From contig CAWIGJ010000003.1 in the NCBI GenBank assembly GCA_963835655.1, positions 1,011,380-1,075,379 on the forward strand: a DNA stretch of 64,000 nucleotides, given 5' to 3'. Made by a program: the position numbers and the translations under genes. Positions 6,167-63,068 of the stretch are shown here, in pieces; position 1 is the stretch's first letter; every line of letters begins with the position of its first letter. Source of the stretch: an uncultured Chloroflexia bacterium. Its GTDB lineage: Bacteria; Chloroflexota; Dehalococcoidia; DSTF01; JALHUB01. Under the pieces are notes generated by a model that was not told where the DNA came from, ran no database searches, and saw only the letters and a list, made by a program, of their open reading frames with translations.

Positions 6167-7717
6167 TCAGAGGGGAATGCTGCCGTGCTTTCGACGTGGC
6201 GTCGAGTCCGTCTTGCTGCGGAGCATCTCCAGCGCCCGCAGCACCTGCCAGCGCGTCTCTCGCGGGTCGATGACGTCATCGAGGTAACCGCGTTCCGCTG
6301 CCGCATACGGGCTCGCGAATCGCTCCTTGTACTCCTGCACCAGCTCCGTTCGCAACGCCTCTTTGTCTTCCGCCGACTGCAACTGGTTGCGGAAGATGAT
6401 GTTCACCGCCGCGTCCGGGCCCATGACGGCGATCTCGGCGCTTGGCCAGGCGAGGTTCACGTCGGCCCGCAGGTGCTTCGACCCCATAGCCAGGTAGGCG
6501 CCGCCGTACGCCTTACGTACTATGACCGTCACCTTCGGCACGCTCGCCTCGGCGTACGCGTAGACCAGCTTTGCGCCGTGAGTGATGATGCCGCCGAACT
6601 CCTGTGCCGTCCCCGGCAGGAAGCCCGGCACGTCGACCAGCGTCACGATGGGAATGTTGAACGCATCGCAGAAGCGCACGAAGCGGGCCGCCTTCCGCGA
6701 CGAGTCGATGTCGAGCACGCCTGCCAGGTATAGCGGCTGATTCGCGACGACGCCAACCGTCCTCCCTCCCATCCGGGCGAAGCCGACCACCACGTTCTGC
6801 GCGAAGTGCCGGTGCACCTCCATGAAGTCGCCGCCGTCGACGATACGGTAGACCACCTCCCGGATGTCGTACGGCTTCACCGGATCATCGGGGACGATGT
6901 TGAGCATGTCCTCGGCGCGACGGTGCGGATCGTCGCCGATCTCCAGGAAGGGCGCGTCGTCAACGTTATTCGACGGCAGGTACGACAGAAGGCGCCGGAC
7001 CTCGTGCAGACATTCCTCCTCGCCTTCAATAGCGAAGTGCGCGACACCGCTGCGGGTGGCCTGCGTCATCGCTCCGCCCAACTCTTCGTGTGTCACTTCC
7101 TCCTGCGTCACAGCCCTGATGACATCAGGGCCGGTGATGTACATCTGCGAGGTCTTCTGCACCATGAAGATGAAGTCGGTCATCGCGGGCGAATACACAG
7201 CGCCGCCAGCGCAGGGCCCCATAATGACCGATATCTGCGGCACAACGCCTGAAGCTAGCGAGTTGCGAAGAAAGATGTCGGCGTAACCAGCCAGGCTGGC
7301 AACGCCTTCCTGAATGCGGGCGCCGCCGGAGTCGTTCAGGCCGATGATGGGGCAGCCCGTCTTCACCGCCATGTCCATTACGCGGCAGATCCTCTCGCCG
7401 ACGACCTCCGACAGGGAGCCACCGAACACAGTGAAGTCCTGCGAGTAGACGAACACCTGCCGGTTGTCAATTCGTCCGTAGCCCGTCACGACGGCGTCGC
7501 CGTGGATTCGCTGACCGTCGGCGCCGAACTCGCTCGATCGGTGGACGACCAGACCCTCAAGTTCGGTGAAGCTGCCTTCGTCCAGGAGAATGTCCAACCG
7601 CTCGCGGGCCGTGAGTTTGCCTCGGCTGTGCTGCGCCTCGATGCGTCGCTGTCCGCCACCCTGACGGGCGTCTTCCTTCAGCCTGCGCAGTCGCTCCAGC
7701 TTGTCTCCAACCGACAT
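6167..7717 (-). CDS. Acyl-CoA carboxylase carboxyltransferase beta subunit (propionyl-CoA carboxylase beta / methylmalonyl-CoA carboxyltransferase family)
   Basis: 516 aa with both carboxyltransferase N and C halves. The hallmark motifs are recognisable by eye. No alpha (biotin carboxylase) subunit gene is adjacent. Confidence 0.85.
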
Positions 7718-28512: not shown

Positions 28513-30174
28513 ATGGCTGTCGAAGTCCTCTACCGTAAGTACCGTCCCCAAAGGTTCAGCGAGGTTGCGGGTCAAGAGCCCATTATGCGCACCCTCCGCA
28601 ACGCTGTATCTTCGAAAAAAGTATCCCATGCGTACCTTTTTAGCGGCCCGCGCGGGACCGGCAAGACCAGCACCGGCCGTCTCCTCGCCAAGGCGGCCAA
28701 CTGCCGGAACCCGAAGGACGGCGAGCCCTGCAACAAGTGCGACTCCTGCCTCGCCTTCAGCGAAGGCCGCGCCATGGACCTCGTCGAGCTGGACGCCGCC
28801 AGTAACCGCGGCATCGACGCCATCAAGGACCTGCGCGAGAGGGTCGGCTATGCGCCCGGTAGCGCCGACTTCAAGGTCTATATCCTTGACGAAGCCCACA
28901 TGCTCACCACCGAGGCCTCGAATGCCCTCCTGAAGACGCTCGAGGAGCCGCCACCGCACGTCATCTTCGTCCTCGCGACGACGGAACCTCACAAGATACC
29001 CGCGACCATCGGCTCTCGTTGCCAGCGCTTCGACTTCCGTCGCATCCCCCTGGAAGCGGCTGTCGACCGGCTGGCTTACGTCTGCAAGCAGGAGAAGATA
29101 ACCTGCCCGCGCGAGGCGCTCGAGCTCATTGCCCGCAGCGCCACCGGCAGCATGCGCGACGCCATCAATATGCTGGAGCAGGTCGTCGACTACCACGGTC
29201 GCGAGCTGACGGTCGAGACGGTCCAGAGCGGCCTCGGCCTCACCGGCGACGCCCGCAGCAACGAGCTGGCCCGCCTTGTCCTCAGCGGCGACCTCGGCGG
29301 CGGCCTGGCGCTCATCGCCTCCGTGCGCGACGACGGTCTTGACCTGCGGCAGTTTCAGCGCGAAGTCGTCTCCTATCTGCGACAGCTACTGCTCGTCGCC
29401 GCCGGCGCCGATAGCGCTCTCAGCTTGACCAAAGAGCAGGCGAAGGATATGCAGAAGGCCCTGGAAGGCGTTGGTAAGGAGGAAATCGTGCGAGCGTTGC
29501 GTGCCTTCGGCCAGGTCGACGTCCGTGCCGACCCGTTGTCGTCGCTGCCGCTGGAAATCGCCCTTGCTGAGTGCGTCCTTGCTCGAAATGCGGTCGTGCA
29601 TCAGGCGGCAGAGGTTCAAAGACGCGAAGCCGCGCCTGTCAGGCCTCCAGCCGCCGCACCCGCACCCATCATCGACGAACCCCCTTCGATGCCTGGCCCT
29701 TCACGACGCAGAGCCGCTCCCGTCGCGACGCCCGCTCCCGCCCCGCCCCTGTCGGAGAGTGCCGTCGCGACGCCCGCCCTGCCGGTTTCGCCGGAGGTAA
29801 CATCGCTTCAGTCGAAATGGCAGGATGTCTATCAGTTAGCTCGCAAGATCAACTTCAAGGCCGGTGCCCTGCTCAACAGCGGCTGCGCTATCACCGGTCT
29901 TGACGATGGCACTGTCGTGTTCGGCTTCCGCCATCAGCCGCTCGCCGAAAAGATGAACTCCGGCGAAGGCGGCGCCTACCTGCAGGCGCTCCGCGAGGCC
30001 GTGCAGAAAGTTCTCGGTGCCTCTTACGAAGTGCGCTGCGTCTACGACCCGCAGGCGTCAAGCGGGCGGTCAGCGAGCGCAAGCACCGGCGGTGGCGGCG
30101 GACACCTCGTCCAGGCGGCCCGCGAGCTGGGAGCGCGGGTGGTGGGTGGCGTCGACGAAGGAGAGATGCCATGA
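28513..30174 (+). CDS. dnaX: DNA polymerase III subunit gamma/tau
   Basis: AAA+ Walker A GPRGTGKTS, zinc module CxxC…CxxC, SRC motif and a Pro/Ala-rich linker. Confidence 0.9.
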   Translation: MAVEVLYRKYRPQRFSEVAGQEPIMRTLRNAVSSKKVSHAYLFSGPRGTGKTSTGRLLAKAANCRNPKDGEPCNKCDSCLAFSEGRAMDLVELDAASNRGIDAIKDLRERVGYAPGSADFKVYILDEAHMLTTEASNALLKTLEEPPPHVIFVLATTEPHKIPATIGSRCQRFDFRRIPLEAAVDRLAYVCKQEKITCPREALELIARSATGSMRDAINMLEQVVDYHGRELTVETVQSGLGLTGDARSNELARLVLSGDLGGGLALIASVRDDGLDLRQFQREVVSYLRQLLLVAAGADSALSLTKEQAKDMQKALEGVGKEEIVRALRAFGQVDVRADPLSSLPLEIALAECVLARNAVVHQAAEVQRREAAPVRPPAAAPAPIIDEPPSMPGPSRRRAAPVATPAPAPPLSESAVATPALPVSPEVTSLQSKWQDVYQLARKINFKAGALLNSGCAITGLDDGTVVFGFRHQPLAEKMNSGEGGAYLQALREAVQKVLGASYEVRCVYDPQASSGRSASASTGGGGGHLVQAARELGARVVGGVDEGEMP

Positions 30175-49624: not shown

Positions 49625-49701
49625 GGGCCGCTAGCTCAATTTGGCAGAGCAGCTGACTCTTAATCAGCCGGTTCCAGGTTCGAGTCCTGGGCGGCCTACC
49701 A
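49625..49701 (+). tRNA. tRNA-Lys (anticodon CTT)
   Basis: Cloverleaf folds as GGGCCGC/GCGGCCT acceptor, GCTC/GAGC D-stem, GCTGA/TCAGC anticodon stem with loop CTCTTAA, and a CCAGG/CCTGG T-stem with a TTCGAGT loop. CCA is encoded. Confidence 0.9.
49655..49701 (+). repeat. attL core: the 3' 47 nt of tRNA-Lys, identical to 62920-62966
   Basis: Exact 47/47 match: gactcttaatcagccggttccaggttcgagtcctgggcggcctacca. Confidence 0.85.
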
Positions 49702-49714
49702 GAAAACGAATCTA

Positions 49715-49740
49715 GAAAGGCCCCCTTCGAGGGGCCTTTC
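49715..49740. terminator. Perfect hairpin GAAAGGCCCC cttcga GGGGCCTTTC, likely a bidirectional terminator between tRNA-Lys and the first element gene
   Basis: 10-bp perfect stem. T-rich flank on the minus strand (TTTCTAGATTCGTTTTCTGG). Confidence 0.45.
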
Positions 49741-49758
49741 TGCTTACCTTCCTTAGCA

Positions 49759-49778
49759 TTTGCTAACATTTTGCTAAC
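49759..49778 (+). repeat. Two direct copies of TTTGCTAAC (plus an overlapping TTAGCA/TGCTAA inverted repeat) just inside attL; candidate integrase arm sites
   Basis: ccTTAGCAtTTGCTAACatTTTGCTAACgc. The same 9-mer pair occurs at 62768-62789. Confidence 0.5.
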
Positions 49779-50169
49779 GCTCGTGTGGGCGGTAGTGTCC
49801 CACTAGAAACGCCAAGTGCGCGGTACTCATCAGGAAGGCGGTCGCCTTCGGTCCGACCGACGTTGAACCTGTGGCCTCCCTACGGTGCATAAAGAAGAGA
49901 AGATTGGTCGTTAGGAGAGCGAGGGCGGCTCTCTCTATATCCGTTTTGTGCGAAGCGTCCGCCGCGACGACACAAGCCGCTATATAGTCAAAGGCCTTGT
50001 CCGAATGAAGTTCAGGCTTAGAGACGTTCAGTTGTTTTGCTAACTGACGGAGGGTCTCAAGCACAATCTCATTTCCAGTATTTGGGTCTGTGTCAGCATC
50101 TTCCACTTGCTTGAGCCAAGCGACAGCCTCGGCTTCCCCCAATAGATCCATTTCGCTGTTCTCATCCAT
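49774..50169 (-). CDS. Hypothetical protein (131 aa), element cargo
   Basis: ORF only. No recognisable motif. Confidence 0.4.
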   Translation of the reverse strand: MDENSEMDLLGEAEAVAWLKQVEDADTDPNTGNEIVLETLRQLAKQLNVSKPELHSDKAFDYIAACVVAADASHKTDIERAALALLTTNLLFFMHRREATGSTSVGPKATAFLMSTAHLAFLVGHYRPHER

Positions 50170-50173
50170 CTTG

Positions 50174-51316
50174 TCACCTACTGAACACTAGCGCCGCCAC
50201 CCGCTCTGCGGCGTCCTCTTGCAAGCCGGGGATAACGGCGCTGTAGACGTCGAGGGTAAAGGCGACGCTGCTATGTCCGAGCCGTTCACTGACCACTTTC
50301 GGGTGAACGCCAGCGGCCAACGCAAGGCTGGCGTGACCGTGGCGCAAATCATGCAGCCTTATCGTGGGCAGGCCAGCCGACTTCACGAGGAGCTGGAAAT
50401 GGCCCGAGAAGGACTCGGGGTTTACGGGGCCGCCGTCCGGCGCCGTGAATACCAGCGCCTCGGCGTCGGGCGCCCCTAGTCCAAGAGTCATGCGATCTTC
50501 CAGCACCCGCTTGCGGTGAGCCCTGAGAACGGCGATCGTGGTCGTGTCTAGGCTGATCTTGCGGTTGCCCCGGCCTGTCTTCGGCTCGCTCGAAAGGATT
50601 TGCCCCTTCACGCTGATAAGCGTCTGATTGACGCTGAGGTGGCCAGCCTTGAGGTCTAGGTCACACCACCTTGCCCCCAGTGCTTCGCCGCGTCTCATGC
50701 CCGTGGTGGCGAGTAGGAACAGGGGCTGGTAGTAGTAGTCACCTTCTATATGTCGGAGGAATTGGCCCAGTTGGTCAGCGTTCCATGTCCGAAGGGTATG
50801 GTTACGCTGCTGCTTTGGTGGGCTTGCAGCAGCGGCCACGTTCCTAGTCACGTCACCCCATTTGAGGGCTTCGCCCAATGCGCGGTGCAACGTCGCGTGG
50901 CAATAGCGCACCGTTCGGGGCGATAAACCGCCCTTGCCCTGGCGCCGGCCGCTTTCCAGGAGTTCAGCGTAAAGGCTATTCAACTGGCCGGGGGTGAGTT
51001 TCTGCAACGGCGTGCTACCTATTCGCGGCTTGATATAGCTTTCGACTATCAGCCGGTAGCCCTCGAGCGTTGACGCGCGGACGCTGGCCCGCGCCTGATC
51101 CAGCCATCGCGTCAGGAACATGGCCAGCGTTTCCCGTGAGGGCTCTACAAGGTTGCCCGTGGCGTAGCGCTGAAGCGTCTCCGTTAGCCCGGCCTCGCAC
51201 TCTTTCCGCGTACGAAATCCGCCCTTAGTCCGCTGCCGACGCCGGCCCTTTTCGTCGCGGCCAACGTCGAGCGTATAGCTCCAGGTCCTGCCCCTCTTGC
51301 CGACGTGTCCTTTCAT
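50174..51316 (-). CDS. Tyrosine-type phage integrase
   Basis: Catalytic box R…HDLRH…LGHSSVAFTLDVY. Adjacent to attL and tRNA. Start probably the internal Met (MKGHVGKRG) next to the upstream gene stop. Confidence 0.85.
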   Translation of the reverse strand: MKGHVGKRGRTWSYTLDVGRDEKGRRRQRTKGGFRTRKECEAGLTETLQRYATGNLVEPSRETLAMFLTRWLDQARASVRASTLEGYRLIVESYIKPRIGSTPLQKLTPGQLNSLYAELLESGRRQGKGGLSPRTVRYCHATLHRALGEALKWGDVTRNVAAAASPPKQQRNHTLRTWNADQLGQFLRHIEGDYYYQPLFLLATTGMRRGEALGARWCDLDLKAGHLSVNQTLISVKGQILSSEPKTGRGNRKISLDTTTIAVLRAHRKRVLEDRMTLGLGAPDAEALVFTAPDGGPVNPESFSGHFQLLVKSAGLPTIRLHDLRHGHASLALAAGVHPKVVSERLGHSSVAFTLDVYSAVIPGLQEDAAERVAALVFSR

Positions 51317-52221
51317 GATTGCCCTCCTCTGTGTTCTCGCGCCCATGCGCGATCCCGACAGCGCTTGTCATGGTACTCTTGCAGCCCGTGGGCGACGCCG
51401 AAGAGACGCCCGCAACCTTTGCAGAGCTGCCATCGTTTACCGGCCGCTAGGTCTTCATAGAGTTGCAGCCACATGGCAGTTTCTAAGTCGCCACAGCTCG
51501 ATCCACCTTTGATTCTGCCACCATCAATGGAGAGCCCTAGCCGAACGCTCTCCAACCGTTCCCAGAACACCGACGCCAAGCGAACCTGCTTCTCCTCTAG
51601 GTCCGGATCGTCGTCGAACTCCTCTGCGTCTCGTACCTGCTTCACGAGCCGAACGGCCTCAGAGAACTCGATGGCTTGTATAAGCAAGCGCCAGAGAATG
51701 ATCCTGACTTTGCCGTCCGCGTCCTCCAGATCGGCGAAGATGGGGCGCGGCGGTGATTGCCGAGTGTAGATAATGCCGCCCGGTAGAGGTCGCGGAAGGA
51801 CTGGCCCCCAATTGACGACGAACGCTCGCGCCTCGCGCTGGATCGCCCCGTTGAACGAGGCGTATATGGCAAGGGTTTCCGCAGAATCTTCGCCGCTCGG
51901 TGCCGACCTTTGCCCTGCGTCCTGCGCATGCTTTCCTAGCGCGGCGAAGTCGCTGTAGGGCTGCGGCGTCAGTCTGAGCGGCTCATACCCCTCGCGGCTG
52001 AAGTCCACGAGCGCGCCGTCAAACTGTAACGCGACGGGGTCGCCGCCGACGCGCCAGTGCTGCCTGTTTCCCTTCGGCCACCAAAAGACCGTGAAAGTGT
52101 CGTCGCGTTTCTGCATTTCGGCCCCTATCTCGGCGGAAATCGGCTTGGCCTCGTCTATTATTGCACGGTACCATACCAGTGTCAAGCGATTAGAAGGGGA
52201 TAGGAGCAGAAAAAATGACAC
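51313..52221 (-). CDS. Hypothetical protein with a C-terminal CGNR-like zinc-finger (CxxC…F…C-R-x-R…HR)
   Basis: C-terminus RWQLCKGCGRLFGVAHGLQEYHDKRCRDRAWAREHR resembles the zf-CGNR signature. The N-terminal ~35 aa may be an over-extension. Confidence 0.4.
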   Translation of the reverse strand: MSFFLLLSPSNRLTLVWYRAIIDEAKPISAEIGAEMQKRDDTFTVFWWPKGNRQHWRVGGDPVALQFDGALVDFSREGYEPLRLTPQPYSDFAALGKHAQDAGQRSAPSGEDSAETLAIYASFNGAIQREARAFVVNWGPVLPRPLPGGIIYTRQSPPRPIFADLEDADGKVRIILWRLLIQAIEFSEAVRLVKQVRDAEEFDDDPDLEEKQVRLASVFWERLESVRLGLSIDGGRIKGGSSCGDLETAMWLQLYEDLAAGKRWQLCKGCGRLFGVAHGLQEYHDKRCRDRAWAREHRGGQS

Positions 52222-52439
52222 AGAAGAATGCGATGGCGGTAGACGTTCGCCGGCTGCCGCCGACGGTCACCGTTCCCGAAGCGGGTAGCTTGCTGGGAAT
52301 CAGTCGCGGGTCCGCTTACGAGGCCGCCCGTACGGGGCAAATCCCGGCCCTGAGAATCGGGGCGCGCCTCGTGGTGCCTACGGCGCAGTTGCTCCGGCTT
52401 CTAGAGGGTGTGCCCACCGAGCCGAAGCCGGGCGCCTGA
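52215..52439 (+). CDS. Excisionase/AlpA-family HTH DNA-binding protein
   Basis: VTVPEAGSLLGISRGSAYEAARTGQIPALRIGARLVVPTAQLLRLLEG matches the excisionase-family HTH pattern. Divergent from the integrase. Confidence 0.65.
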   Translation: MTQKNAMAVDVRRLPPTVTVPEAGSLLGISRGSAYEAARTGQIPALRIGARLVVPTAQLLRLLEGVPTEPKPGA

Positions 52440-52549
52440 GCCGACAAGGGCCGTGAGCACGTTGACTGAACTCCGTCCTGCGCGCGCTTTGTGCCCGCGC
52501 TGCCAATTTCGGTTCGAGCTTCTTTCGGAAGTCCGGGTAGAGGATAGCG

Positions 52550-53527
52550 TTGCCTGCCCCAAGTGCCATGTCGTGGTTTGCCCCGAACGGGAGCCGCTCG
52601 ACCAAAGTTGGTGGGCTTGGGCGAATAGCAGAGGGGCAGACCGTGAATCTTGACGACATTCTCCCGCTTCTCGATTCGCCCGCCGGCGATCCTTTCGGCG
52701 GGAAGCCGGTTGCGCCGGACCGTCACACGTGGTTTTTCTGCCCCGTTCATGCGGATGGCAGCAAGCACGGGCGCCGCTCGGCAACCTTTCACCCCCGCTA
52801 TGGCCTGACCTGTTTCGCCGGCTGCGAAAGGCGCGACATCATTGCCGCGCTCCAAAAGCGCGGCGGCGTTCATCCCGCCCATACACCGAGCGACAGCAGC
52901 CCCGCGCATCGCTCGAGGTCAAAAGCGATCCCTGGCCGGATCGTCGCCCGCTACCCGTACCCCGACGAAAGGGGCCAGTTGCTGTATGAGGCCCTACGCA
53001 AGGAGACGGCTGACGGCAAGACATTCCTTTTGCGGCGGCCTAACGGCATGGGCGGCTGGATTTGGAACATTGACGGCATGCGCCGTGTCCTCTATCGGCT
53101 TCCCGAACTCCTGGCGGCTGACCCTAGCGCCTTTGTTTTCATCTGTGAGGGCGAGAAGCGCGTTGATGCGCTTGCTCGGCTCGGCCTCACGGCGACAACA
53201 AACGTAGGCGGCGCCGGGAAGTGGAAACCCGCCTGTAACGACTATCTTCGCCGCCGGCGCGTCGTGATCCTTCCCGACAACGATCCGCCAGGAGCCGAAC
53301 ACGCTGAGCAAGTGGCGCGCTCACTTATGGGCGTCGCCGCTGAAGTCCGCGTGATCGTGCTGCCCGGCCTGCCTTTCAAGGGCGACATCATTAACTGGCT
53401 TGCTGCTGGCGGCAACCGCGAAATACTCCTAGCCCTGGCAGAGCGCCCGCCGACGGAGCGGCCATCTTCCGCCGACTTCCCGAAAGCCGTCCGGGTGAGC
53501 GTCCTTAACGCCGCAGGAGTTGCCTGA
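52550..53527 (+). CDS. Phage/plasmid primase (CHC2 zinc finger plus Toprim)
   Basis: CPVHADGSKHGRRSATFHPRYGLTCFAGC (CHC2). Toprim glutamate in ICEGEKRVDAL and DxD in ILPDNDPPG. Confidence 0.75.
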   Translation: MPAPSAMSWFAPNGSRSTKVGGLGRIAEGQTVNLDDILPLLDSPAGDPFGGKPVAPDRHTWFFCPVHADGSKHGRRSATFHPRYGLTCFAGCERRDIIAALQKRGGVHPAHTPSDSSPAHRSRSKAIPGRIVARYPYPDERGQLLYEALRKETADGKTFLLRRPNGMGGWIWNIDGMRRVLYRLPELLAADPSAFVFICEGEKRVDALARLGLTATTNVGGAGKWKPACNDYLRRRRVVILPDNDPPGAEHAEQVARSLMGVAAEVRVIVLPGLPFKGDIINWLAAGGNREILLALAERPPTERPSSADFPKAVRVSVLNAAGVA

Positions 53528-54750
53528 TGCCTCAGCCTAGCACGCGGGAGGAAGTTGCCATCGTCGCATTCGGTGACGGCTCGCACACCGACCGGGAGCA
53601 AGTTCTGGAAGTGGTAAGCCGCTGGCTGAGAATCGGCGACCTCGAGGCGGTCGACGTCATCATGGCAACCGCTATCGCAATCTACCTGCCGGGCGATCCC
53701 CTTTGGCTTCACGTTGTAGCTCCACCTGGAGGCACCAAGAGCGAGTTACTGCGGTCGCTACAGGGGCCAAGGGTCGTCAGCATTTCCACCATGACGCCGC
53801 AGACGCTCATCTCGGGCCTCAAGGGGCACGGTGAGGACATCGACCTGCTGCCTAAGCTCGATGGCAAACTGCTTATCATCAAGGACTTCACGTCCATTCT
53901 TTCAAAGAAGTCAGAGGACCAGGCGGCAATCTTCGCCGACTTGCGCGAAGCATATGACGGCTATCTTGAAAAGTCCTTCGGCTCCGGCGTCGGGATAAAG
54001 GGCTACAATGCCAGTTTCGGACTCATTGCGGGCGTCACGCCCGCGATAGACATGTTCCGGACTGTCCATTCCTTGCTCGGCGAGCGCTTCCTTCGGGTCA
54101 ATGTTGTTGGCGATGAACAGGGCGCCGTCACGCGCTCCAGTGAGCTTGAGGGCCAAGAGAAGACAATGCGCCAAGAGCTCGGCGCCGCTGTCGGCGGCTA
54201 TCTCACGCATGCCGGCGAATGGGTTGACCCCGACGTGCTGGTAGAAGAGCGTTTCCTTCAGCAGCTCCGGGCACTGGCACAGCTCACGGCTGCCCTGCGT
54301 TCCCCCGTCGCTCGCGACCGTCAGCACCACGTCCTCTATTCGCCTCAGCGTGAGATAGGTACGCGGCTCGTTAAGCAGCTTCAGAAACTTGGCAAGGCGC
54401 TCGCCAACTGGCGGGAACGCCTGATAGTCAGCGCTGAAGATTACGCTACCGTTCGTCGCGTCGCGCTTGACTGCATACCGAGCGGACGAATTGCCGCCCT
54501 GCGGCCGCTCCTAGAGGCGGATACGTGGCTATCGACAAAACAGGTAGGGCAAGCCGCTAACCAGCATACCGACACCGCAAACGAGCATCTTCATGACATG
54601 TGGATGCTCCATCTCCTACAACGCGAAGGTGACGCCGCCTATTCATGGGCAGTAGCGGATGAAACCCGCCAACTGCTAGGAAGGGCGGCTATCGACCTAC
54701 GGACGCAAAACACCCTGAGTAGGCTAGATGAGGCAATGGAATGCCCTTAA
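53527..54750 (+). CDS. Primase-associated P-loop NTPase / replicative helicase-like protein
   Basis: Walker-A-like VVAPPGGTKSE and Walker-B-like KLLIIKDF. Start overlaps the primase stop (ATGA), suggesting translational coupling. Confidence 0.45.
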   Translation: MPQPSTREEVAIVAFGDGSHTDREQVLEVVSRWLRIGDLEAVDVIMATAIAIYLPGDPLWLHVVAPPGGTKSELLRSLQGPRVVSISTMTPQTLISGLKGHGEDIDLLPKLDGKLLIIKDFTSILSKKSEDQAAIFADLREAYDGYLEKSFGSGVGIKGYNASFGLIAGVTPAIDMFRTVHSLLGERFLRVNVVGDEQGAVTRSSELEGQEKTMRQELGAAVGGYLTHAGEWVDPDVLVEERFLQQLRALAQLTAALRSPVARDRQHHVLYSPQREIGTRLVKQLQKLGKALANWRERLIVSAEDYATVRRVALDCIPSGRIAALRPLLEADTWLSTKQVGQAANQHTDTANEHLHDMWMLHLLQREGDAAYSWAVADETRQLLGRAAIDLRTQNTLSRLDEAMECP

Positions 54751-54811
54751 TTGTTAAGACTCAAGGACGCAAAACACCCTGTGCAAGCACGAGGACAAAT
54801 ATAATTTGTCC
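54701..54811 (+). promoter_or_regulatory. Origin-like region: two 17-bp direct repeats GGACGCAAAACACCCTG (54701-54717 and 54765-54781) followed by the AT-rich palindrome GGACAAATATAATTTGTCC (54793-54811)
   Basis: Read directly. Located at the 3' end of, and just after, the helicase-like gene. Confidence 0.5.
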
Positions 54812-55091
54812 TTTTAGAACGTCGGCGGCTACTGGGGGTACTTTGCGCCCCTGGCCTACTGCCTGCCAACAAGCGCGTGTGCTACCCGCTCCGGCCACAA
54901 AATCACGCGGCGACAGCCGCCCAAGCGGTAGGCTCAGTGGATGCGGCAGAACGAAGGCCCTGCCATGACTGCCACCAAAGAGGACTCGGCCCGTGAGCAA
55001 AGCGTTAGCAGGCAAGCGGGATCGAATCTGGAAAAGGCCCAGCAGCGGATTGGTAGTCAGCGGGATTACACACTAACGGAGTCTGACTAGG

Positions 55092-55631
55092 ATGGCCGTC
55101 AAAGCCGAAATAGAGCCCGCCACAGGCGCGCTAGAGCCGCGATCTATCTCGCCGGCGCAACGTCAGCAGCGCCAGCTCGCAGCCGTGAAGACGGGTCTGT
55201 ATGTAAAAGCCCCTGCTGGCCTCAGGCTCAGGTCGCGAAGAGTGCGCCGCTTGGTAAGCAAAATGCGCGCGGTCATGCCGTGGCTTGACGATAGCGACTT
55301 GCCAGCTTGTAGGGCGTGGGCAGAGTTCGAGATTCTAGGCGCTACTGCCTTCGCCGATCTCATTGAGCGCGGCATGACAAACGACAATGGCGATCCGCGC
55401 CGGTTGCTGGGCGAATTCAGGCAACTTCGGCAGGCGCAACTCGGCTATGAGCGCGGTCTAGGAATGACGCCAGCCGCCCGCATGTCCTTGCGGGTAGGCG
55501 ACAGCCGGGCGCGTTCGTTCGATAGGGGCGGCGTTGCCGCATCTGCTGAGGACGTGGCAGCGCTTGAAACGCGCGTCCTGGCGCGTCTAGGGCCGCAAGG
55601 AACGGCGGCAGAGGTGAACAGTGGAGACTAA
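55092..55631 (+). CDS. Terminase small subunit (P27-family-like)
   Basis: 179 aa. Overlaps the terL start by 11 nt. Sequence character fits the P27 small terminase family. Confidence 0.55.
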   Translation: MAVKAEIEPATGALEPRSISPAQRQQRQLAAVKTGLYVKAPAGLRLRSRRVRRLVSKMRAVMPWLDDSDLPACRAWAEFEILGATAFADLIERGMTNDNGDPRRLLGEFRQLRQAQLGYERGLGMTPAARMSLRVGDSRARSFDRGGVAASAEDVAALETRVLARLGPQGTAAEVNSGD

Positions 55632-57000
55632 CGACGCCCTGGCGCAATCGCCCTTGTTGTGGGCGCTGGAGCGGCTTCACCGCCTCAACGGACGGCCTTT
55701 CACGCTCTATGACTACCAGCTTCACGTCCTGGCAAACCGCTCGCCGCGTGTGCTGGTCCTGAAGTCGCGACAAGTCGGGCTATCGACAGCGGCGGCGATC
55801 AGGGCGGCTCACGAATTGCTGTTCAACGAACGGGCGATGGTGCTGGTAGTGAGCCGCGATCAGGACGCCGCCGGCCACTTCCTTGCGACCGTCCTTGACA
55901 TTCTCGACTCACTTGCTGAGCCGCCTGACTTCACGCGGCGCGGCGTCTTTGAGGCGCAACTAAAGAACGGATCACGCATCCTGTCGCAAGCGGCGACAGG
56001 CAAGGCAGGGCGCGGCGTTAGGGCGACACTCGTGGTCTGTGATGAATTCGCCTTTATGGATTATGACGCGGCGATCTTCCGCGCCGTCAGCCCGACGATA
56101 GCGCGCGGCGGGCGGCTAATCGTGATCAGCACGCCCAACGGTCAAAACAATCTCTTCTTCAGACTGTGGCACGGCAACGAAGGCGGCGATTGGTCAAGGC
56201 ATCGCGTCCACTGGAGCGACTGCCCGGCGTTTGATCCGGCATGGTTTGAGCGGGAACGTCCGAACTATACCGCCCGCGACTGGGCGCAAGAGTTCGATTT
56301 GGACTTCGTTGCGAGTGGCGGCGCTGCCTTCCGTCCTGAGGACGTTGACGCCATGGCCGATGGATGGCAGGGCTATCAGCCGCGCAAGGATGATGAGCGG
56401 TTTGCGATCTATGTCACGGGCGTTGACGTCGGCCGCAAGCATGACGCGACCGTGCTAATCACCCTGAGGACTGACAGGCGACCGTTCCAGATCGTCGCGT
56501 TCGAGCGGCTAGTGGGCTGTCCCTACGCTCAGCAGCAGGCCTTGATCGAGGCGCGGGCCGAAGCCTACGGCGGCAAGGTGATAGTCGAGAGCAACGGGAT
56601 CGGCGACCCGGTTCTCGAGGCGCTGCATTGCTACGCCGATCCCTTCGTAACGACTCAACAGAGCAAGGCGCACGGCCTGACGCGGCTCATTCAACTGGTA
56701 GAGCAGCGCCAGATCAAGGGCGACATTCCCGAGTTGCTGTCAGAACTTCGCTCCTACGAATGGGAGGATTCGCGGCTCAAAACAGACTGTGTAATGGCCC
56801 TGATGCTCGCTTGCACGGGCATCGTCGAGTATTACGTATCGTTCCAAGAGCTTCAGGACATGATGGACGAAGGCTCGCGCGGGCGGGGAACTATCGTCAC
56901 AAACTCTGACGGCACGCGCTGGTTGAATTCGAGTTGCGTTGAGGACGACGCCCGAGCGGATGAAGCGGGCGCGTTCCATAGCATCCCGACAGTCTTTTGA
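55621..57000 (+). CDS. Terminase large subunit (ATPase plus RNaseH-like nuclease)
   Basis: Walker A region VLKSRQVGLST, Walker B LVVCDEFAF, and the nuclease Asp cluster YVTGVDVGRKHDATVL. Confidence 0.75.
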   Translation: METNDALAQSPLLWALERLHRLNGRPFTLYDYQLHVLANRSPRVLVLKSRQVGLSTAAAIRAAHELLFNERAMVLVVSRDQDAAGHFLATVLDILDSLAEPPDFTRRGVFEAQLKNGSRILSQAATGKAGRGVRATLVVCDEFAFMDYDAAIFRAVSPTIARGGRLIVISTPNGQNNLFFRLWHGNEGGDWSRHRVHWSDCPAFDPAWFERERPNYTARDWAQEFDLDFVASGGAAFRPEDVDAMADGWQGYQPRKDDERFAIYVTGVDVGRKHDATVLITLRTDRRPFQIVAFERLVGCPYAQQQALIEARAEAYGGKVIVESNGIGDPVLEALHCYADPFVTTQQSKAHGLTRLIQLVEQRQIKGDIPELLSELRSYEWEDSRLKTDCVMALMLACTGIVEYYVSFQELQDMMDEGSRGRGTIVTNSDGTRWLNSSCVEDDARADEAGAFHSIPTVF

Positions 57001-57028
57001 CACTGCCGGGGTAGGAAAGGAAACGGAA

Positions 57029-57391
57029 ATGGCGACAGGAACCTCAAACGAGAAAGTCAGGGAGCACCTGAAGACGCTGAGTGAACAGATGCGCCTTCGC
57101 TACAACGTGCTGGAGGACCGGCGCGCGGCTGAAGAGGCGGGCAACTCAGTGATTCCGCCAGGGCTGCCAGGAGAAACATTCGGCTTCAAGACGACAACGC
57201 GAATCGACGCGCCGGCCATCATGAAAGTTGACCCGAAGGCTAACGCTGCCATGAAGCAGCGGCTCCAGAACGTGTTGGGCGTTGCGAAGCTGCTTGGTGT
57301 TCCCGAAGACAAGGCGCGAGAACAGTTCGAGCGGGAACAGGCAGGCCAGCGGCCGCTCGATAACACCGTGCCGGGATTCAAGGGAGTGTAA
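57029..57391 (+). CDS. Hypothetical phage protein (120 aa)
   Basis: RBS GGAAAGGAAACGG. ATG at 57029 follows terL. Confidence 0.45.
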   Translation: MATGTSNEKVREHLKTLSEQMRLRYNVLEDRRAAEEAGNSVIPPGLPGETFGFKTTTRIDAPAIMKVDPKANAAMKQRLQNVLGVAKLLGVPEDKAREQFEREQAGQRPLDNTVPGFKGV

Positions 57392-57394
57392 ACC

Positions 57395-57715
57395 ATGCAA
57401 ACGGGAGACGTACACCGCGTCGATTTTGCCAACGTTCGGCGCTACGCCGACAGCGAACTCGACCGCTGCTGGAGTTGCCGCAACTTGGCGCGCTGTTCTG
57501 GCGATTGTCACTCGCACGCCGAGCCGCCCGTCGCTGTAAAGGTTAACGGCTCAGCGGATGCGCGGGCGAGACAGCAACTCGATGAAGTCCTGACGGTCGG
57601 CAAGGGCGCCGGTCTTAGTGAAGCACAAGTCCTCGAGCAAAGGCTGAGGCAGCTTCAGGGCAAGCCGCCGGTTCCCGATGGAACTTTCGGCTTCAACGGG
57701 GGTCACGCCCAATGA
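57395..57715 (+). CDS. Hypothetical Cys-rich protein (CWSC…C…C…H)
   Basis: ORF in the structural/packaging module. Possible zinc-binding. Confidence 0.4.
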   Translation: MQTGDVHRVDFANVRRYADSELDRCWSCRNLARCSGDCHSHAEPPVAVKVNGSADARARQQLDEVLTVGKGAGLSEAQVLEQRLRQLQGKPPVPDGTFGFNGGHAQ

Positions 57716-57930
57716 CCCCGCTCATCGAGGAATTGGCGGCGCGCGTCGAAAACGGCCAAATCCGCCTATCGCGACTGCCGCCGGGCGAAACGCGCGATCA
57801 AGTGGCGGCGCGACTGGAGAAGGATCGCGGCGACTTGCAGCGCTGGCTCGACGTAGAAGAGCTTGAAAGAAACAGCCGGGCGAACAGCGCTGAGCCCCTG
57901 CCGTGGGACTTGCGACGGAAGGAACTGTGA
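57712..57930 (+). CDS. Hypothetical protein (72 aa)
   Basis: Overlaps the preceding gene by 4 nt. Confidence 0.35.
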   Translation: MTPLIEELAARVENGQIRLSRLPPGETRDQVAARLEKDRGDLQRWLDVEELERNSRANSAEPLPWDLRRKEL

Positions 57931-58140
57931 ATCGCGTTAGGTGCGTGAAGTGAACGAAGTGAATTTCGGCTCGGACAGGTGTGGCTTCACCTCCTTGTTG
58001 TCTGCCTGTCCGGTCGGCGTGTCGGGCCGGGGTGTGTGACGCGCGACTTCCATCGCGTTGCCATAACGAGCTTGACCTCCTTGAGCTCCCCGGTCCGGAG
58101 CGCTTCAAGTCAGGGTGACGCAATTTGAAAGGATAGCCCA

Positions 58141-59748
58141 ATGGCAGACGATTCAACCCTGAGTATCCTAATTCAGGCTGAGGACCAAGCCTCGAGCGCC
58201 CTTCAAAGCGTCGGCGGCTCCCTTGACGACCTTCAATCAAAGGCGCAAGGCGTCACTGACGCCGCAGGCGACACGGCGGGTGCCATGTCTGACGTTGGGG
58301 ACACGGCGGCAGATGCCGGTTCAAGCCTTGAGGATGCGGGCGGGGCTGCGGCTGACACCGGGACAAACCTTGAGGATGCGGGTAGTTCTGCCGACAGTGC
58401 GGGGATGAGCATCGGCGACCTGACCTCACAGGTTGGTGATCTGGCGGGCGGTCTAAGCGGCCTCACGCCCGAAATGGGAACGTTAACCGCTGGATTAGGC
58501 GGGCTATCTGGGGCAGTGGCCGGACCAGCGGGTATAGCAGCGGCTATTGGCGCTGGAGCGGCGGCCTTCATCGGGCTAGGCGAAGCGGGCGGTCAGTGGG
58601 CAACTGAGGTGATGACCGTTAAAGACATCACCAATATGAGCACGACTGACGTAACGAAGTGGGGCCTTGCGCTGGAAGACGTGGGCGGCGACATGAATCA
58701 GCTCGCTACGATCTCCTACATGCTGGAGCGCCGATTGCAAACGCAAGTAGATGCCGAGAACGCAGGGCAGACGGGTAGTTTGGCGTTGGCGAAAGCGATG
58801 GAGGACACCGGAACGGCCTACAAGGATGCCGAAGGGAACATGCTCGACATGGGTACTATCCTGCCCAATCTGCTAACGAATCTGACAGCCATGACGGATA
58901 AAACGCTGGCCGCTAATGATGCCACGGTAATTCTCGGACGCGGCGGGCGTGAAATGCTAGTGGTACTTCAAGAATGGCCTGATCTGGCGGCCGCCGTCAA
59001 CCGGCAGACTGCCGAGTTGGATACCACGACTGAAGAAGGGGCGAAACACGCCATCGAGTACAACATCGCCATGACGGACATGAAAGACGAGCTGATCATG
59101 CTCGATCAGGACGTTTTACCCGCGTTTACCACATTCCTAGAGGCCCTACCCGTCGGCTTCCATATGGCTGGCGACGCCATGCACCTTCTGTTTAGAGAGA
59201 TCGTGGACGGAGCGCCGTTTTTGCGCTCGATGGTCGATACAGTCTCGGCCGGAGCTGACATACTACACGGCGACTTCAAGGGCGCCGTAGACGACGGAAA
59301 GAACGCCCTGCGAGATATGATTCCCGGCTATAACATGGCGCAGGACGCTATTGCCGGCGTCAACGATGAAACCAAGGATTTGTCTAGTTCGCTCGACGCC
59401 CAATCTGAAAGCCTGAAATCCTCGACTCAGCAATGGGCCGACTACAACTCAGAGATTGAAGCGGCTCTCAGCATGGGCATGACGCTGGAAGAGGCCGTGA
59501 CCAGCGTAAGTCATCCCGGTGTAGACATCACCGGCCAAGAGGTGAACGTTCCTACCTATGACTACGGCGGCTTTGTGCCCGGGGCGCCGGGTGCGCCGCA
59601 ACTTGCAGTTGTGCATGGCGGCGAGACGGTGACGCCAGCGGGCCAACAGCAGTTCGGCACCTTCCAGAACTTCGGTAATATCAACGTCTACCCCCAGAGC
59701 GGCGGCATGGCCGACATGATGGCAGAAATAGCGAAGCAGGTGAGCTAA
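58141..59748 (+). CDS. Tape-measure-like / tail structural protein (Gly/Ala/Asp-rich repeats)
   Basis: N-terminal degenerate repeats DxGxxxxDxG followed by Gly-rich hydrophobic segments, then a helical region. Position is after the terminase genes. Confidence 0.35.
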   Translation: MADDSTLSILIQAEDQASSALQSVGGSLDDLQSKAQGVTDAAGDTAGAMSDVGDTAADAGSSLEDAGGAAADTGTNLEDAGSSADSAGMSIGDLTSQVGDLAGGLSGLTPEMGTLTAGLGGLSGAVAGPAGIAAAIGAGAAAFIGLGEAGGQWATEVMTVKDITNMSTTDVTKWGLALEDVGGDMNQLATISYMLERRLQTQVDAENAGQTGSLALAKAMEDTGTAYKDAEGNMLDMGTILPNLLTNLTAMTDKTLAANDATVILGRGGREMLVVLQEWPDLAAAVNRQTAELDTTTEEGAKHAIEYNIAMTDMKDELIMLDQDVLPAFTTFLEALPVGFHMAGDAMHLLFREIVDGAPFLRSMVDTVSAGADILHGDFKGAVDDGKNALRDMIPGYNMAQDAIAGVNDETKDLSSSLDAQSESLKSSTQQWADYNSEIEAALSMGMTLEEAVTSVSHPGVDITGQEVNVPTYDYGGFVPGAPGAPQLAVVHGGETVTPAGQQQFGTFQNFGNINVYPQSGGMADMMAEIAKQVS

Positions 59749-59757
59749 CACGGGGCA

Positions 59758-59985
59758 ATGTCTATGGCCTTAGTGCGCTGTGGCCGCCCGTACTGTGGCG
59801 GCGCAATCTTGCCCGGCGAGTCCGCCTGTCTCCTTTGCGGCCGCTGCCCCCGCAAACTTGAGCCTATCCGCCTTCCCGTTCGGCGCCGCGAAAAGACGTT
59901 CTCAGTGCTGGCGGCGATAATGGTAGAGGTCCCAGGTGCCTTCCGTTCGCTGAGGGCGGCTGTACCCGAGGGGGTAGACTTCTAG
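59758..59985 (+). CDS. Small zinc-ribbon protein (CxxC…CxxC)
   Basis: CGRPYCGG…CLLCGRC. Confidence 0.35.
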   Translation: MSMALVRCGRPYCGGAILPGESACLLCGRCPRKLEPIRLPVRRREKTFSVLAAIMVEVPGAFRSLRAAVPEGVDF

Positions 59986-60098
59986 TAGCACGTCGCGCCC
60001 GGGCGCTCTAGGTACTGACCGACCGCCTTCTTTCCGACCCCCAAAGCTAGGAACCGCTCGTTTTGCCGCCAGGATCGAAATCTGGGCGTTTCCCGCGC

Positions 60099-60128
60099 TT
60101 GACAGGCGCTAGACACCGGCGTACTATC
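60099..60128 (+). promoter_or_regulatory. Near-consensus sigma70 promoter (TTGACA, 18 nt, TACTAT) upstream of the second recombinase
   Basis: cgcTTGACAggcgctagacaccggcgTACTATcc. Confidence 0.4.
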
Positions 60129-60252
60129 CGCCGTGAAAGACGACGGCGCCCGCTTGGGCGGACGCCGCCTGAGCCAAAGCCTGCTGTTACCAGGCCCGGC
60201 CCGCGCAAAGGATACCATGTCGGACCCCTGATCGCAGCAGCGAAGGGGGTTT

Positions 60253-61143
60253 TTGATGATCACGGTAAAGGATGCAGTGAGCCGCTACATTCAAAGCCTC
60301 TGCGCCAGCGGCTACTCCGAGTTCACTACGATCAGCGCGACCTCTATTCTAGGGCAGTTCGCAACCTACGCCGATGGTGCAGCCTTAGCCGATGTCGGTG
60401 ATCGGGCCATCGCTTGGCTGGCTCTTCGCCGCCGACAGGTTCGGCGTAACACGCTGTGTGCCAACTCCTCACACGTTAAGCAATTCCTCAAGTTCTGCAA
60501 GGACAACGGCTGGATCGAGTCCAATCCCGTTGCCGACATGAAGCGACCATGTGCAGAACAGGTAGTCACACAACCGCTGAGTGATAGGGAAATCCTCGCG
60601 CTATGCGAGGCGGCAACGGGTTGGCAGCGGACGGCTATCGTTTTACTGCTAGGAACCGGGATGCGGATCGGCGAGCTCGCCGCCCTGCGCTGGCAGGACA
60701 TTTACGATCAATACGTGGTAGTGCATGGGAAGGGTTCAAAGCAGCGCACGCTCGCTCCGGGCAGGCGAGCTATGGAGATGCTGCGCGAGTTGCCACAGGC
60801 CGGCGATAAGGTATTCCCCTGTACCTATGGCGGCATAAAGACGGTTCTGCGGCGCCTCTCCGTTCGCAGCGGTATCTACTTCCATCCGCATCAGTTCCGG
60901 CATACGTTTTCCCATCGCTTCCTCGAGGCTGGCGGCTCATTTGAAGAGCTGTCAGAGATTCTGGGCCATGCCAACCTGAACACAACGGCTGTCTATGTCC
61001 GGGCATTCCGGCGGGATCGAGCGTTAGCGGCGCAACGCCGCTGGAATCCGGCTGATGCGCTCTTTGGAATTCCCGACGATGGTGACGACGGCGCCAGCAA
61101 CGTTGTCGCGTTTCATCCGAGAGTCGCAGTCGGGGCGCGATAG
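60253..61143 (+). CDS. Second tyrosine recombinase (XerC/D-like)
   Basis: R…HQFRHTFSHRF…LGHANLNTTAVYV catalytic box. Confidence 0.8.
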   Translation: MMITVKDAVSRYIQSLCASGYSEFTTISATSILGQFATYADGAALADVGDRAIAWLALRRRQVRRNTLCANSSHVKQFLKFCKDNGWIESNPVADMKRPCAEQVVTQPLSDREILALCEAATGWQRTAIVLLLGTGMRIGELAALRWQDIYDQYVVVHGKGSKQRTLAPGRRAMEMLRELPQAGDKVFPCTYGGIKTVLRRLSVRSGIYFHPHQFRHTFSHRFLEAGGSFEELSEILGHANLNTTAVYVRAFRRDRALAAQRRWNPADALFGIPDDGDDGASNVVAFHPRVAVGAR

Positions 61144-61480
61144 AGGGCGTTGACCCGCTCGACGTACCGTTGTCACTGAGTAGATAATCGCGACGTTAGG
61201 CCGGGGGTTTGTGTTGTGCGGCAACCCGCGACAGTCGTAAACGGGTCTATGAGAATGGCACCGGGTCCCACCTTAAGTCCCGTGGCTGGGGCAACGCAAG
61301 GATGCGATCACATTTCCAGGAGGCAGTCTGTCAAGAGATTGGGAGCGATTCTATGCGCACGGCCTACCCCCGGCCGACGCATTCCAATGATCGAAAGGAG
61401 ACAGTTGTGGAATCTGAAGATGTTTACGAGACTTTAGCAGCCCTCAAGAAAACAGCAGGCTGATAGGGGCGAGCAGGGGT

Positions 61481-61837
61481 CTACTGCAGCTTCCCGTCCT
61501 TGTCGCTTACCGTGTAGGTGTCTGACTCGACGATGTTCTGGCCCGCTTGGTCTGGGGCGAAATCGCAGGTGACTACCCACATGTCGGCGTCGGGCCTATA
61601 AGAGGCGCTGACGCATCTTACAAAGTTAGCTCCCGCCGGAGCGGGCATATTGCTCACCTGCTGTTGAGCCAGCCGCTCAATGTCTTGTGCAGTGAACCTG
61701 GCCTTGGGCGCGGCGGTGGGCGCGGGCGTGGGAATTGTTTGCGTCGATTGCCACGGACCGGTCACATACAGGATCGCACCGGCCGCGATACCAGCGCCGA
61801 CCAGCAGTGCGACTACGGGGATTATCCACTGCTTCAT
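61481..61837 (-). CDS. Membrane-anchored or secreted hypothetical protein (118 aa), element cargo
   Basis: N-terminal signal anchor, Pro/Thr linker, and a Cys-containing C-terminal domain. Confidence 0.4.
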   Translation of the reverse strand: MKQWIIPVVALLVGAGIAAGAILYVTGPWQSTQTIPTPAPTAAPKARFTAQDIERLAQQQVSNMPAPAGANFVRCVSASYRPDADMWVVTCDFAPDQAGQNIVESDTYTVSDKDGKLQ

Positions 61838-62008
61838 GGTACGTCTCCTAACAGGAGTCTGACGAGGATAGGCGCATTCTACACCCGTGAGTCAACGTAT
61901 CGCGTGCGCGTCGTTCTGCAACCCGATTTGCAACAAGAATCTTGACGCTCGTGGTATCCTTTCACTATCTCAGGACCTCCGCCAATCCCATCAACAGGGA
62001 CACAACAT

Positions 62009-62662
62009 ATGCCCTGGCCATTCCGACGAAGGCTACCAGATAGCGATTTCGCAAACGTCATTAACTTGATCCGTCATCTCCAGACCCAGGGAGCACTCCA
62101 GGATTTTACCGGCGAGCTTTCAATCACGGCCATGGCCATCGCGGACGGCGCTGGTCTACAGGAAGATGGAGTCTTCGCCCGTGGGAGGGCATACGTAACT
62201 GATCCTCACCGCGCCGCCACTCATCTTCTTCCCGCATTCGAAAAGACGGTTACGATGGCCGAGTCCATGGCCAGCGAACACAACTCATATCCGGCCCCAC
62301 AAACACCCAAGAAAGCGCTTGAGGCCTACAATTCCTGGACGGATTTCCTAACCTTATTTGTCACCAGAGCAAGACTAGAACTTGCCTGTTATACGGAATG
62401 GGTCGAGAATCCCTCTCTTGATGTCAGTCAGCGTTCCGCCGCGCTCAACCAGGCCACAGACGGCTCATTAGCCCTCGCCGTGACCCGTCTCAAGGACCTC
62501 GTCCGCTATGCGGGAATCAGCACAGACGCTTGGTGGTCTCTCAACTGTGCCGCGTTCAACGACGCCCGAAGCCGGGTCGATCTACCTCCCTTGACCGAGA
62601 CCGACTTCCGCGCCAGGTACCTCTCCATGGTCGCTGGAAGCCGACCTCGATTCTTCGAATGA
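62009..62662 (+). CDS. Hypothetical protein (217 aa), element cargo near attR
   Basis: ORF only. Confidence 0.4.
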   Translation: MPWPFRRRLPDSDFANVINLIRHLQTQGALQDFTGELSITAMAIADGAGLQEDGVFARGRAYVTDPHRAATHLLPAFEKTVTMAESMASEHNSYPAPQTPKKALEAYNSWTDFLTLFVTRARLELACYTEWVENPSLDVSQRSAALNQATDGSLALAVTRLKDLVRYAGISTDAWWSLNCAAFNDARSRVDLPPLTETDFRARYLSMVAGSRPRFFE

Positions 62663-62767
62663 CATTGCCAAGACAACGAGACATACCATGACCGCCTTGA
62701 CCGGCGACAGTACGCATGCGCCGGGCATGACCTTGCAGACAGCGAATAACTGGGGCGTTTTGCTAAC

Positions 62768-62789
62768 GGATTTGCTAACAAACCGTTTG
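62768..62789 (+). repeat. Two direct copies of TTTGCTAAC inside attR, in the same orientation as those at attL
   Basis: cgTTTTGCTAACggaTTTGCTAACaaacc. Confidence 0.5.
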
Positions 62790-62919
62790 TAATTGGCCGT
62801 CAGCGGTCATCATGGCGGGGTAGTCATGGGTCTAGCATCGGGCCGGGCGCAGATACGAATTGGCGCTAGAATTGGCACTAACCCGCAACGTTTAGTATGC
62901 TTTATCATGGCTGGCCTAG

Positions 62920-62966
62920 GACTCTTAATCAGCCGGTTCCAGGTTCGAGTCCTGGGCGGCCTACCA
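62920..62966 (+). repeat. attR: 47-bp duplicate of the tRNA-Lys 3' end (no tRNA 5' half present)
   Basis: Exact match to 49655-49701. The upstream sequence lacks an acceptor or D-arm. Confidence 0.85.
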
Positions 62967-62983
62967 GTGAAGGATCGCTGGCC

Positions 62984-63068
62984 GGGGAAGTGTCGGAACT
63001 GGCAGACGAGCATGACTTAGGATCATGTGCCGCAAGGCGTAGGGGTTCGAGTCCCCTCTTCCCCACCA
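62984..63068 (+). tRNA. tRNA-Leu (anticodon TAG)
   Basis: Acceptor GGGGAAG/CTTCCCC, anticodon stem CATGA/TCATG with loop CTTAGGA, long variable arm TGCCGCAAGGCGT, T-arm AGGGG-TTCGAGT-CCCCT, CCA encoded. Confidence 0.85.

Follow-up and report, generated by a model that had tools for sequence, protein, structure and literature searches.

A conserved module of convergent repeats at the 3′ end of a predicted MCM-like helicase gene: a candidate replication origin in an integrated element of an uncultured Dehalococcoidia bacterium

The DNA analysed here is a 64-kb stretch (hereafter the window) of contig CAWIGJ010000003.1, from an uncultured Chloroflexia bacterium placed by GTDB in the Dehalococcoidia. 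It carries an integrated element of 13.3 kb with adjacent genes for a Toprim-like primase (pri) and a predicted MCM-like helicase (rep). We consider it likely that the repeats found at 54699-54852, at the 3′ end of rep, are the replication origin of the element and complete a pri-rep-ori module of the kind known from Staphylococcus aureus pathogenicity islands (SaPIs) and from plasmid pRN1; protein binding, melting and replication at this site are inferred from the sequence. The conserved design is a pair of convergent inverted arms that flank an AT-rich centre whose sequence varies. A preliminary description of the same DNA had proposed an origin made of direct iterons and an AT-rich palindrome. 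The function that it assigned, an origin beside the initiator/helicase gene, is the part best supported by our analysis, whereas the anatomy of direct iterons plus palindrome does not hold.

The 17-mer on which that description was based, GGACGCAAAACACCCTG, does occur as two exact copies, at 54701-54717 and 54765-54781, with an offset of 64 bp. No third match with three or fewer mismatches was found in the window, and shuffled sequences gave a mean of 0.11 matches, with two or more matches in no shuffle. Close direct repeats (at least 14 nt, within 200 bp) are seen at three places in the window compared to 0.13 in simulated sequence, and the remaining two places are in-frame tandem repeats within open reading frames (ORFs). 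The palindrome GGACAAAT-ATA-ATTTGTCC is also present as described, with 8-bp arms at 54793-54811 and TTTT directly after; perfect 8-bp hairpins occur at eight places in the window against about 4.6 in simulated sequence, and the palindrome alone is statistically unremarkable. The repeats had been placed after the helicase gene, which is not correct for copy 1: this copy is located within the final codons of ORF 53527-54750 (T393-Q-N-T396), and codes for part of the predicted disordered tail of Rep. The 341-bp gap that follows rep holds repeats and the palindrome. A third copy of the 17-mer, inverted and imperfect, had been overlooked, and forms the right arm in Table 1. The module proper consists of copy 2, the AT-rich centre and this inverted copy, and spans some 90-100 bp (54763-54852).

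Conservation was assessed using an alignment of the 407-aa Rep protein with 26 relatives (A1), from which 121 loci (numbered with the prefix L) were collected in genomes, metagenomes and viral contigs. The segment 54650-55100 was compared with these loci by blastn, followed by a fuzzy search and a position weight matrix (PWM) scan. With blastn, the module (window positions of about 54760-54856) was conserved in 13 loci, and the fuzzy search and PWM scan recovered the 17-mer arm together with its inverted partner in more than 30 loci. The preliminary description had made its case depend on conservation of the repeat structure in related elements, and for the 17-mer and its inverted partner this conservation is strong. 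We find the module in essentially every locus with at least 45% protein identity whose sequence continues past the gene. In the window and in the more than 30 loci (45-87% Rep identity), PWM arm copies lie solely at the 3′ end of rep, always as a plus-strand copy followed by a minus-strand copy. The family module reads, from its 5′ side, as the left arm AGGTACGCAAAnnACCCT (the 17-mer) and the block TGnGCAAnCACnAG, and on its 3′ side as the block GCGnYTACnG and the right arm GGGGGTAnnTTGCGTACC, which is the inverted left arm. The convergent-arm consensus is AGGTACGCAAAnnACCCC, with a GCAAnCAC-like second block inward of each arm. The arms measure about 18-28 bp and start 56-92 bp apart, and the AT-rich centre of 30-66 nt varies in both sequence and length. 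The A+T fraction of the centre is 0.57 compared to 0.48 for the loci as a whole, and 0.54 compared to 0.38 for the window. A degenerate form of the module pattern gave eight matches in viral_contigs, none of them beside a Rep homologue (by tblastn and the A1 hidden Markov model), with a rough chance expectation of about seven.

The two arms of a locus change together. In an alignment of 24 distinct module sequences (A2), the 19 arm pairs are 82.9% complementary, and in eight of them both sides have changed (32 cells). The covariation score was reached in none of 500 shuffles, and sliding the partner by one to three columns lowered pairing to 24-52%. The variant classes GGTACGCAA, GGAC/GGGCGCAA (the one seen in the window), GTATGCAA, GGGGTGCAA and AACACGCAA are always common to both arms of a locus, while two to three central positions per arm are unconstrained. 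In most loci the left arm is made up of the last helicase codons (..T-Q-N-T-L..), and third codon positions within the arm are invariant, with 2.0 bits compared to about 0.1-0.3 bits upstream. The same arm, equally conserved, lies after the stop codon in L012-14, L026, L017, L028, L031 and L032. As the arm is kept at synonymous sites and also past the stop codon, the constraint must act on the DNA. Distant homologues (35-50% identity) have a large inverted repeat of their own directly after the gene, many with the ACGCAA core. Unrelated and very long inverted repeats, with arms of 18-30 bp, were also noted just past the gene in L003 (9257-9321), L111 (6418-6568), L116 (7081-7164) and L119 (970-1132), whose Reps share 29-39% identity and which include viral contigs and a Latescibacterota genome. 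That such repeats follow distant rep genes suggests that the architecture outlives the sequence.

The direct pair of 17-mers is not a conserved structure. L007 and L050, which come from different contigs and are the nearest relatives at 86% helicase identity, each have a single left copy, and this copy ends the helicase ORF. Two left arms, 54-64 bp apart, and one right arm are found in the window, in L011 and in L001, a locus from a Dehalococcoidia metagenome-assembled genome (MAG), and in each of these all three copies belong to the same variant. In L038 (1904-2015) a single left arm is paired with two right arms in tandem, and L017 (1626-1697) has two left-type copies 54 bp apart. Such varying copy number is as expected for protein-binding sites. 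In L009/L018, L010 and L040, one arm copy lies at the helicase end and the module follows 600-930 bp further on, past unrelated inserted ORFs. A motif, GTTAATTGYTAAC, stands directly before the module in the window and in L009 (about 6328-6340), L010 (about 7585-7597), L040 (about 4882-4894) and L011 (about 7148-7160). It provides stops in two frames, and terminates the three mutually non-homologous inserted ORFs of L009, L010 and L040. The stretch between the direct arm copies seems to be a slot that takes up variable cargo, and it is a possibility that the duplicated left arm serves as a recombination slot, with the unrelated ORFs between the direct copies in these three loci as its cargo. 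The perfect palindrome fares no better than the direct pair as a conserved structure: it is kept in L007 and L050 and, with symmetric changes (GAGAACAAT/ATTGTTCTC), in L001, is absent from L010, L040, L068 and L020, and is replaced by different hairpins in L008 and L011. In short, both the direct duplication and the palindrome are extras confined to particular lineages.

The rep gene always adjoins the module, while homologues of the TerS of the window are found downstream in only two of more than 25 loci (L001 and L008), and those of TerL in one. The gene after the module is otherwise part of a type I restriction-modification system (L007, L050), or encodes a large serine recombinase (L002, L016, L019), an HNH protein with a capsid gene (L010), a Cas4-like nuclease (L021), a DUF3800 protein (L029) or a methylase (L031). 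Since the downstream genes vary, the module belongs to the helicase and not to packaging or other downstream genes. It accompanies the helicase with either type of primase, Toprim-like (window, L008) or a PrimPol+PriCT_1 fusion (L010, L012).

Rep is predicted to combine an MCM-clade AAA+ helicase core with a MarR-like winged helix, and its predicted structure resembles SaPIbov1 Rep and Cch of the staphylococcal cassette chromosome SCCmec, both of them self-loading helicases of the MCM-like kind. The AlphaFold2 (AF2) model (pLDDT 86) places the winged-helix domain at the C-terminus, at about residues 319-386, followed by a disordered tail at 391-407. The family has no match among Pfam, PHROG or NCBIfam models, and the Rep profile gave only noise when compared by sequence with the PDB. 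For this family (the protein of the window and proteins P0001-P0120), 398 matches at E <= 1e-3 were obtained among the candidates scored. The homologues are standalone or fused to primase domains of the PrimPol+PriCT_1, Toprim or DnaG zinc-ribbon type. One of them, P0058 (51% identity), bears the label of a Candidatus Thorarchaeota MAG, and is either a binning artefact or part of a related archaeal element. The product of pri matches phrog_239 (9e-22), phrog_6088 (3e-21) and PRK07078 (1e-29), and Toprim_2/3 weakly.

If the module is an origin, the C-terminal winged helix of the MCM-like Rep would bind the arms. As the arms point towards each other, we propose that two Rep oligomers assemble in opposite orientations, flanking the AT-rich centre. 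The centre would then melt, possibly aided if the inverted repeat and the small central palindrome extrude as hairpins or cruciforms, and the helicases would load themselves and move apart while the neighbouring primase primes the exposed strands. Copy 1, the upstream direct copy, would be an additional Rep site that arose by duplication of the left arm, and the 8-bp palindrome would be a lineage-specific part of the AT-rich centre. A skew analysis had been suggested as a check, and in the window the result is as predicted: along the element, cumulative GC skew is lowest at 54.4-55.0 kb, with negative skew over pri and rep and positive skew over the co-directional genes to the right. Across loci the agreement is only weak.

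Several observations count against an origin. GC skew is higher to the right than to the left in 17 of 24 loci, a weak trend among loci that are not independent. The element was observed in its integrated state only. The covariation of the arms is equally compatible with a palindrome bound by protein, with a cruciform in the DNA and with an RNA stem, and in the window the RNA fold is clearly better on the minus strand (z -4.5 vs -1.9). The arms are far longer than SaPI iterons, and just two or three are present. Two apparent sub-repeats about 14 nt apart in each arm (GCAAA(A)CAC, then GCAAGCAC) are 26-fold enriched in modules, a pattern that was derived post hoc.

Other explanations account for parts of these data. 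One variant of the origin reading, which we hold to be possible though unlikely, is that recognition depends on structure: the inverted repeat, as a cruciform or as equivalent hairpins on both unwound strands, would load the MCM-like Rep. If true, archaeal plasmids would share this architecture with bacterial MCM-like Reps that form a large, unannotated family, and the left arm would double as coding sequence of the disordered Rep tail. A structured RNA, whether a stabiliser of the rep mRNA 3′ end, a processing site or an antisense RNA for copy-number control, appears improbable. It could draw on the long stem with its compensatory changes, on the minus-strand fold of the window (-45.1 kcal/mol) and on one T.G position that stays a plus-strand wobble in 21 of 24 sequences, yet the G.U-type mismatches show no bias over the family, at 32 on the plus strand vs 31 on the minus strand, and in six loci both strands fold equally well (DNA parameters, z -3.5 to -7.6). 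A search of 54400-55300 on both strands against Rfam 15 returned no match at E <= 10, neither strand has a U-tract after the stem, and no promoter-like site was called on either strand in the region. The extra arm copies, some of them 600-930 bp away, co-evolve on either side and are not needed by a single stem. Taken together, the variable arm copies and the lack of a family-wide strand bias favour a duplex feature, or one that is equal on both strands, over a single-stranded RNA. The sequence TATAAT within the palindrome was considered as a promoter and rejected, having no acceptable -35 element and not being called by the scan.

That the palindrome with its T-run is a terminator for the pri-rep operon, and the 17-mer pair a neutral chance duplication, is likewise improbable. 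The hairpin followed by TTTT is well placed for this, directly past the operon, and the 64-bp duplication is indeed lineage-specific; in pRN1, too, the rep gene is followed by an 8+3 hairpin terminator (PMC4234260). However, the palindrome was not called by a consensus terminator scan, the T-run is missing from L007, L050 and L001, which retain the hairpin, more distant loci lack the hairpin, and the conserved, co-varying arms are left unexplained. In this element, weak termination may be an additional role of the palindrome. A cis site of another kind, such as a recombination or resolution site, an oriT or a miniature inverted-repeat transposable element (MITE), is very improbable. It would fit terminal inverted repeats over about 100 bp and the serine or tyrosine recombinase genes near several of the loci. 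Against this, no relaxase is present, and the arm spacing of 56-92 bp is far above that in the core sites of Xer or serine integrases. The element is integrated with the module uninterrupted and with its att sites elsewhere, so the module cannot be attP; nor can it be a MITE, since neither the 64 kb of DNA from this host nor the remainder of the loci contains further copies. Still harder to credit is a cos or pac site for the small terminase encoded 240 bp downstream. The module does lie just 5′ of a terS-like gene in the window, L001 and L008, and inverted sites around a bendable AT-rich spacer recall R3-I1-R2 of lambda, where the R sites of cosB stand around a bend, but this proposal is largely refuted by synteny, as the linkage to terS is not conserved.

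The element (49655-62967) is integrated at tRNA-Lys(CTT), with a direct att repeat of 48 bp at both ends. A tRNA-Leu(TAG) gene at 62984-63068 starts 17 bp past attR, so that the element sits between two tRNA genes. In addition to the genes listed in Table 1, the element encodes a 302-aa ORF of no assigned function and, in its right part, a tape-measure-like ORF of 535 aa and a second tyrosine recombinase. No capsid or portal gene was recognised by Pfam and PHROGs among the element ORFs tested. Overall, the element looks like a satellite or a decayed prophage. Inside the tape-measure-like ORF we note a 42-bp in-frame tandem repeat at 58306-58389 (76% identity), and another close repeat, of a 14-mer, is present at 29720/29762 (29720-29775, offset 42 bp). 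The best promoter-like site of the region is on the minus strand at 52157-52185 (TTGACA-17-AATAAT with an upstream TG, 11/12). It lies within the annotated start of ORF 51313-52221, and the true start of this ORF is therefore probably downstream. The gap at 52222-52549 is likely a divergent control region, and the 52157-52185 site points away from pri.

Table 1 Features of the integrated element and of the repeat module, in window coordinates
Feature	Position	Strand	Remarks
attL	49655-49702	+	3′ part of tRNA-Lys(CTT) (tRNA 49625-49701); left 48-bp repeat copy
Tyrosine integrase of the element	50174-51346	-	PF00589, PF14659, PF14657; phrog_1
pri, Toprim-like primase gene	52550-53527	+	directly 5′ of rep, overlaps rep start
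rep, predicted MCM-like AAA+ helicase gene	53527-54750	+	407 aa
Arm copy 1 (17-mer at 54701-17)	54699-54716	+	extra left arm in last rep codons; PWM score 25.0
Junction motif TAATTGTTAAGA	54748-54759	+	includes rep stop codon; part of family consensus GTTAATTGYTAAC
Left arm, outer site AAGGACGCAAAACACCCT (17-mer at 54765-81)	54763-54780	+	PWM score 26.0
Left arm, inner conserved block GTGCAAGCACGA	54781-54792	+	second sub-repeat GCAAGCAC, 14 nt after GCAAAACAC
AT-rich centre, presumed unwinding region	54793-54817	.	68% A+T in a 38% A+T genome; palindrome and T-run inside
Right inner conserved block (..GTCGGCGGCTACTG)	54818-54834	.	partial complement of left inner block
Right arm, inverted imperfect 17-mer copy (reverse complement AGGGGCGCAAAGTACCCC)	54835-54852	-	PWM score 22.7
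Weak terS-like gene (55092-55631) and clear terL (55621-57000)	55092-57000	+	neighbours in this element
attR	62920-62967	+	right 48-bp repeat copy

These results provide a testable candidate origin of about 150 bp, with its predicted initiator, for mobile elements of Chloroflexota/Dehalococcoidia, a group almost without genetic tools, and a pri-rep-ori cassette that works could be the starting point for a shuttle vector. They also define a widespread Rep family, predicted to be MCM-like, that lies outside the models of Pfam, PHROG and NCBIfam. The natural variation in its matched predicted binding sites should be useful for the study of origin recognition by self-loading helicases of the MCM type.

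Architectures that combine a primase, an ATPase and a winged helix are frequent in mobile elements (PMC5862659). In SaPIs, the origin lies immediately 3′ of rep and has oppositely pointing iterons that flank an AT-rich region; the winged-helix domain of Rep binds these iterons, and the loading of two hexamers has been proposed (PMC9371898, PMC7581432). The module described here resembles those of SaPIs and other phage-inducible chromosomal islands (PICIs) in its location at or overlapping the 3′ end of rep, in its convergent repeats around an AT-rich centre, in having a primase upstream of or fused to Rep, and in the predicted C-terminal winged helix. It differs in having two or three arms of 18-28 bp, each with at most two sub-repeats, rather than 6-12 iterons of 5-6 nt, in that the left arm usually overlaps the coding end of rep, and in its host phylum, Chloroflexota rather than Bacillota. 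The Rep of the window gave no DUF927 or Primase_Cterm match and has no detectable sequence homology to the SaPI Rep families.

The origin of pRN1 is a stem-loop of 100 bp (stem 21 nt, loop 58 nt) located 3′ of a gene encoding primase, helicase and winged helix, and is needed for replication; an origin of this type has been proposed also for phage BIP-1 (PMC4234260, PMC3869888). Structure-dependent loading at the pRN1 origin has been proposed, but never proven. The likeness to our module extends to the size of about 100 bp, the place just 3′ of the gene for the replication protein, a large loop on a stem of some 20 nt, a structure conserved in relatives, the combination of primase, helicase and winged helix, a small 8+3 hairpin nearby, and the PrimPol+PriCT_1 fusions of some relatives. 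However, pRN1 is an archaeal (Sulfolobus) plasmid whose helicase belongs to superfamily 3 (SF3), whereas the core of the Rep in the window is of the MCM clade and its primase is Toprim-like, with PrimPol in some relatives only. The stem-loops of pRN plasmids are also poorly conserved in sequence, whereas here the ACGCAA...ACCC core is kept down to about 45% Rep identity.

Among viral origins of the SF3/MCM type, site II of SV40 large T and the E1 binding site of papillomaviruses place inverted initiator sites beside AT-rich DNA, where two opposed hexamers assemble (see also PMC7581432). These initiators differ from our Rep in that their origin-binding domain is N-terminal, and in having short pentanucleotides as their sites. 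Classical iteron plasmids share with the module a repeated sequence, here a presumed initiator-binding one, beside an AT-rich region and near the initiator gene. The difference is that there is no array of three or more regular direct repeats: direct copies number two at most and are confined to some lineages, and it is an inverted arrangement that is conserved. Overall, the finding extends a known origin design, and reveals no new one.

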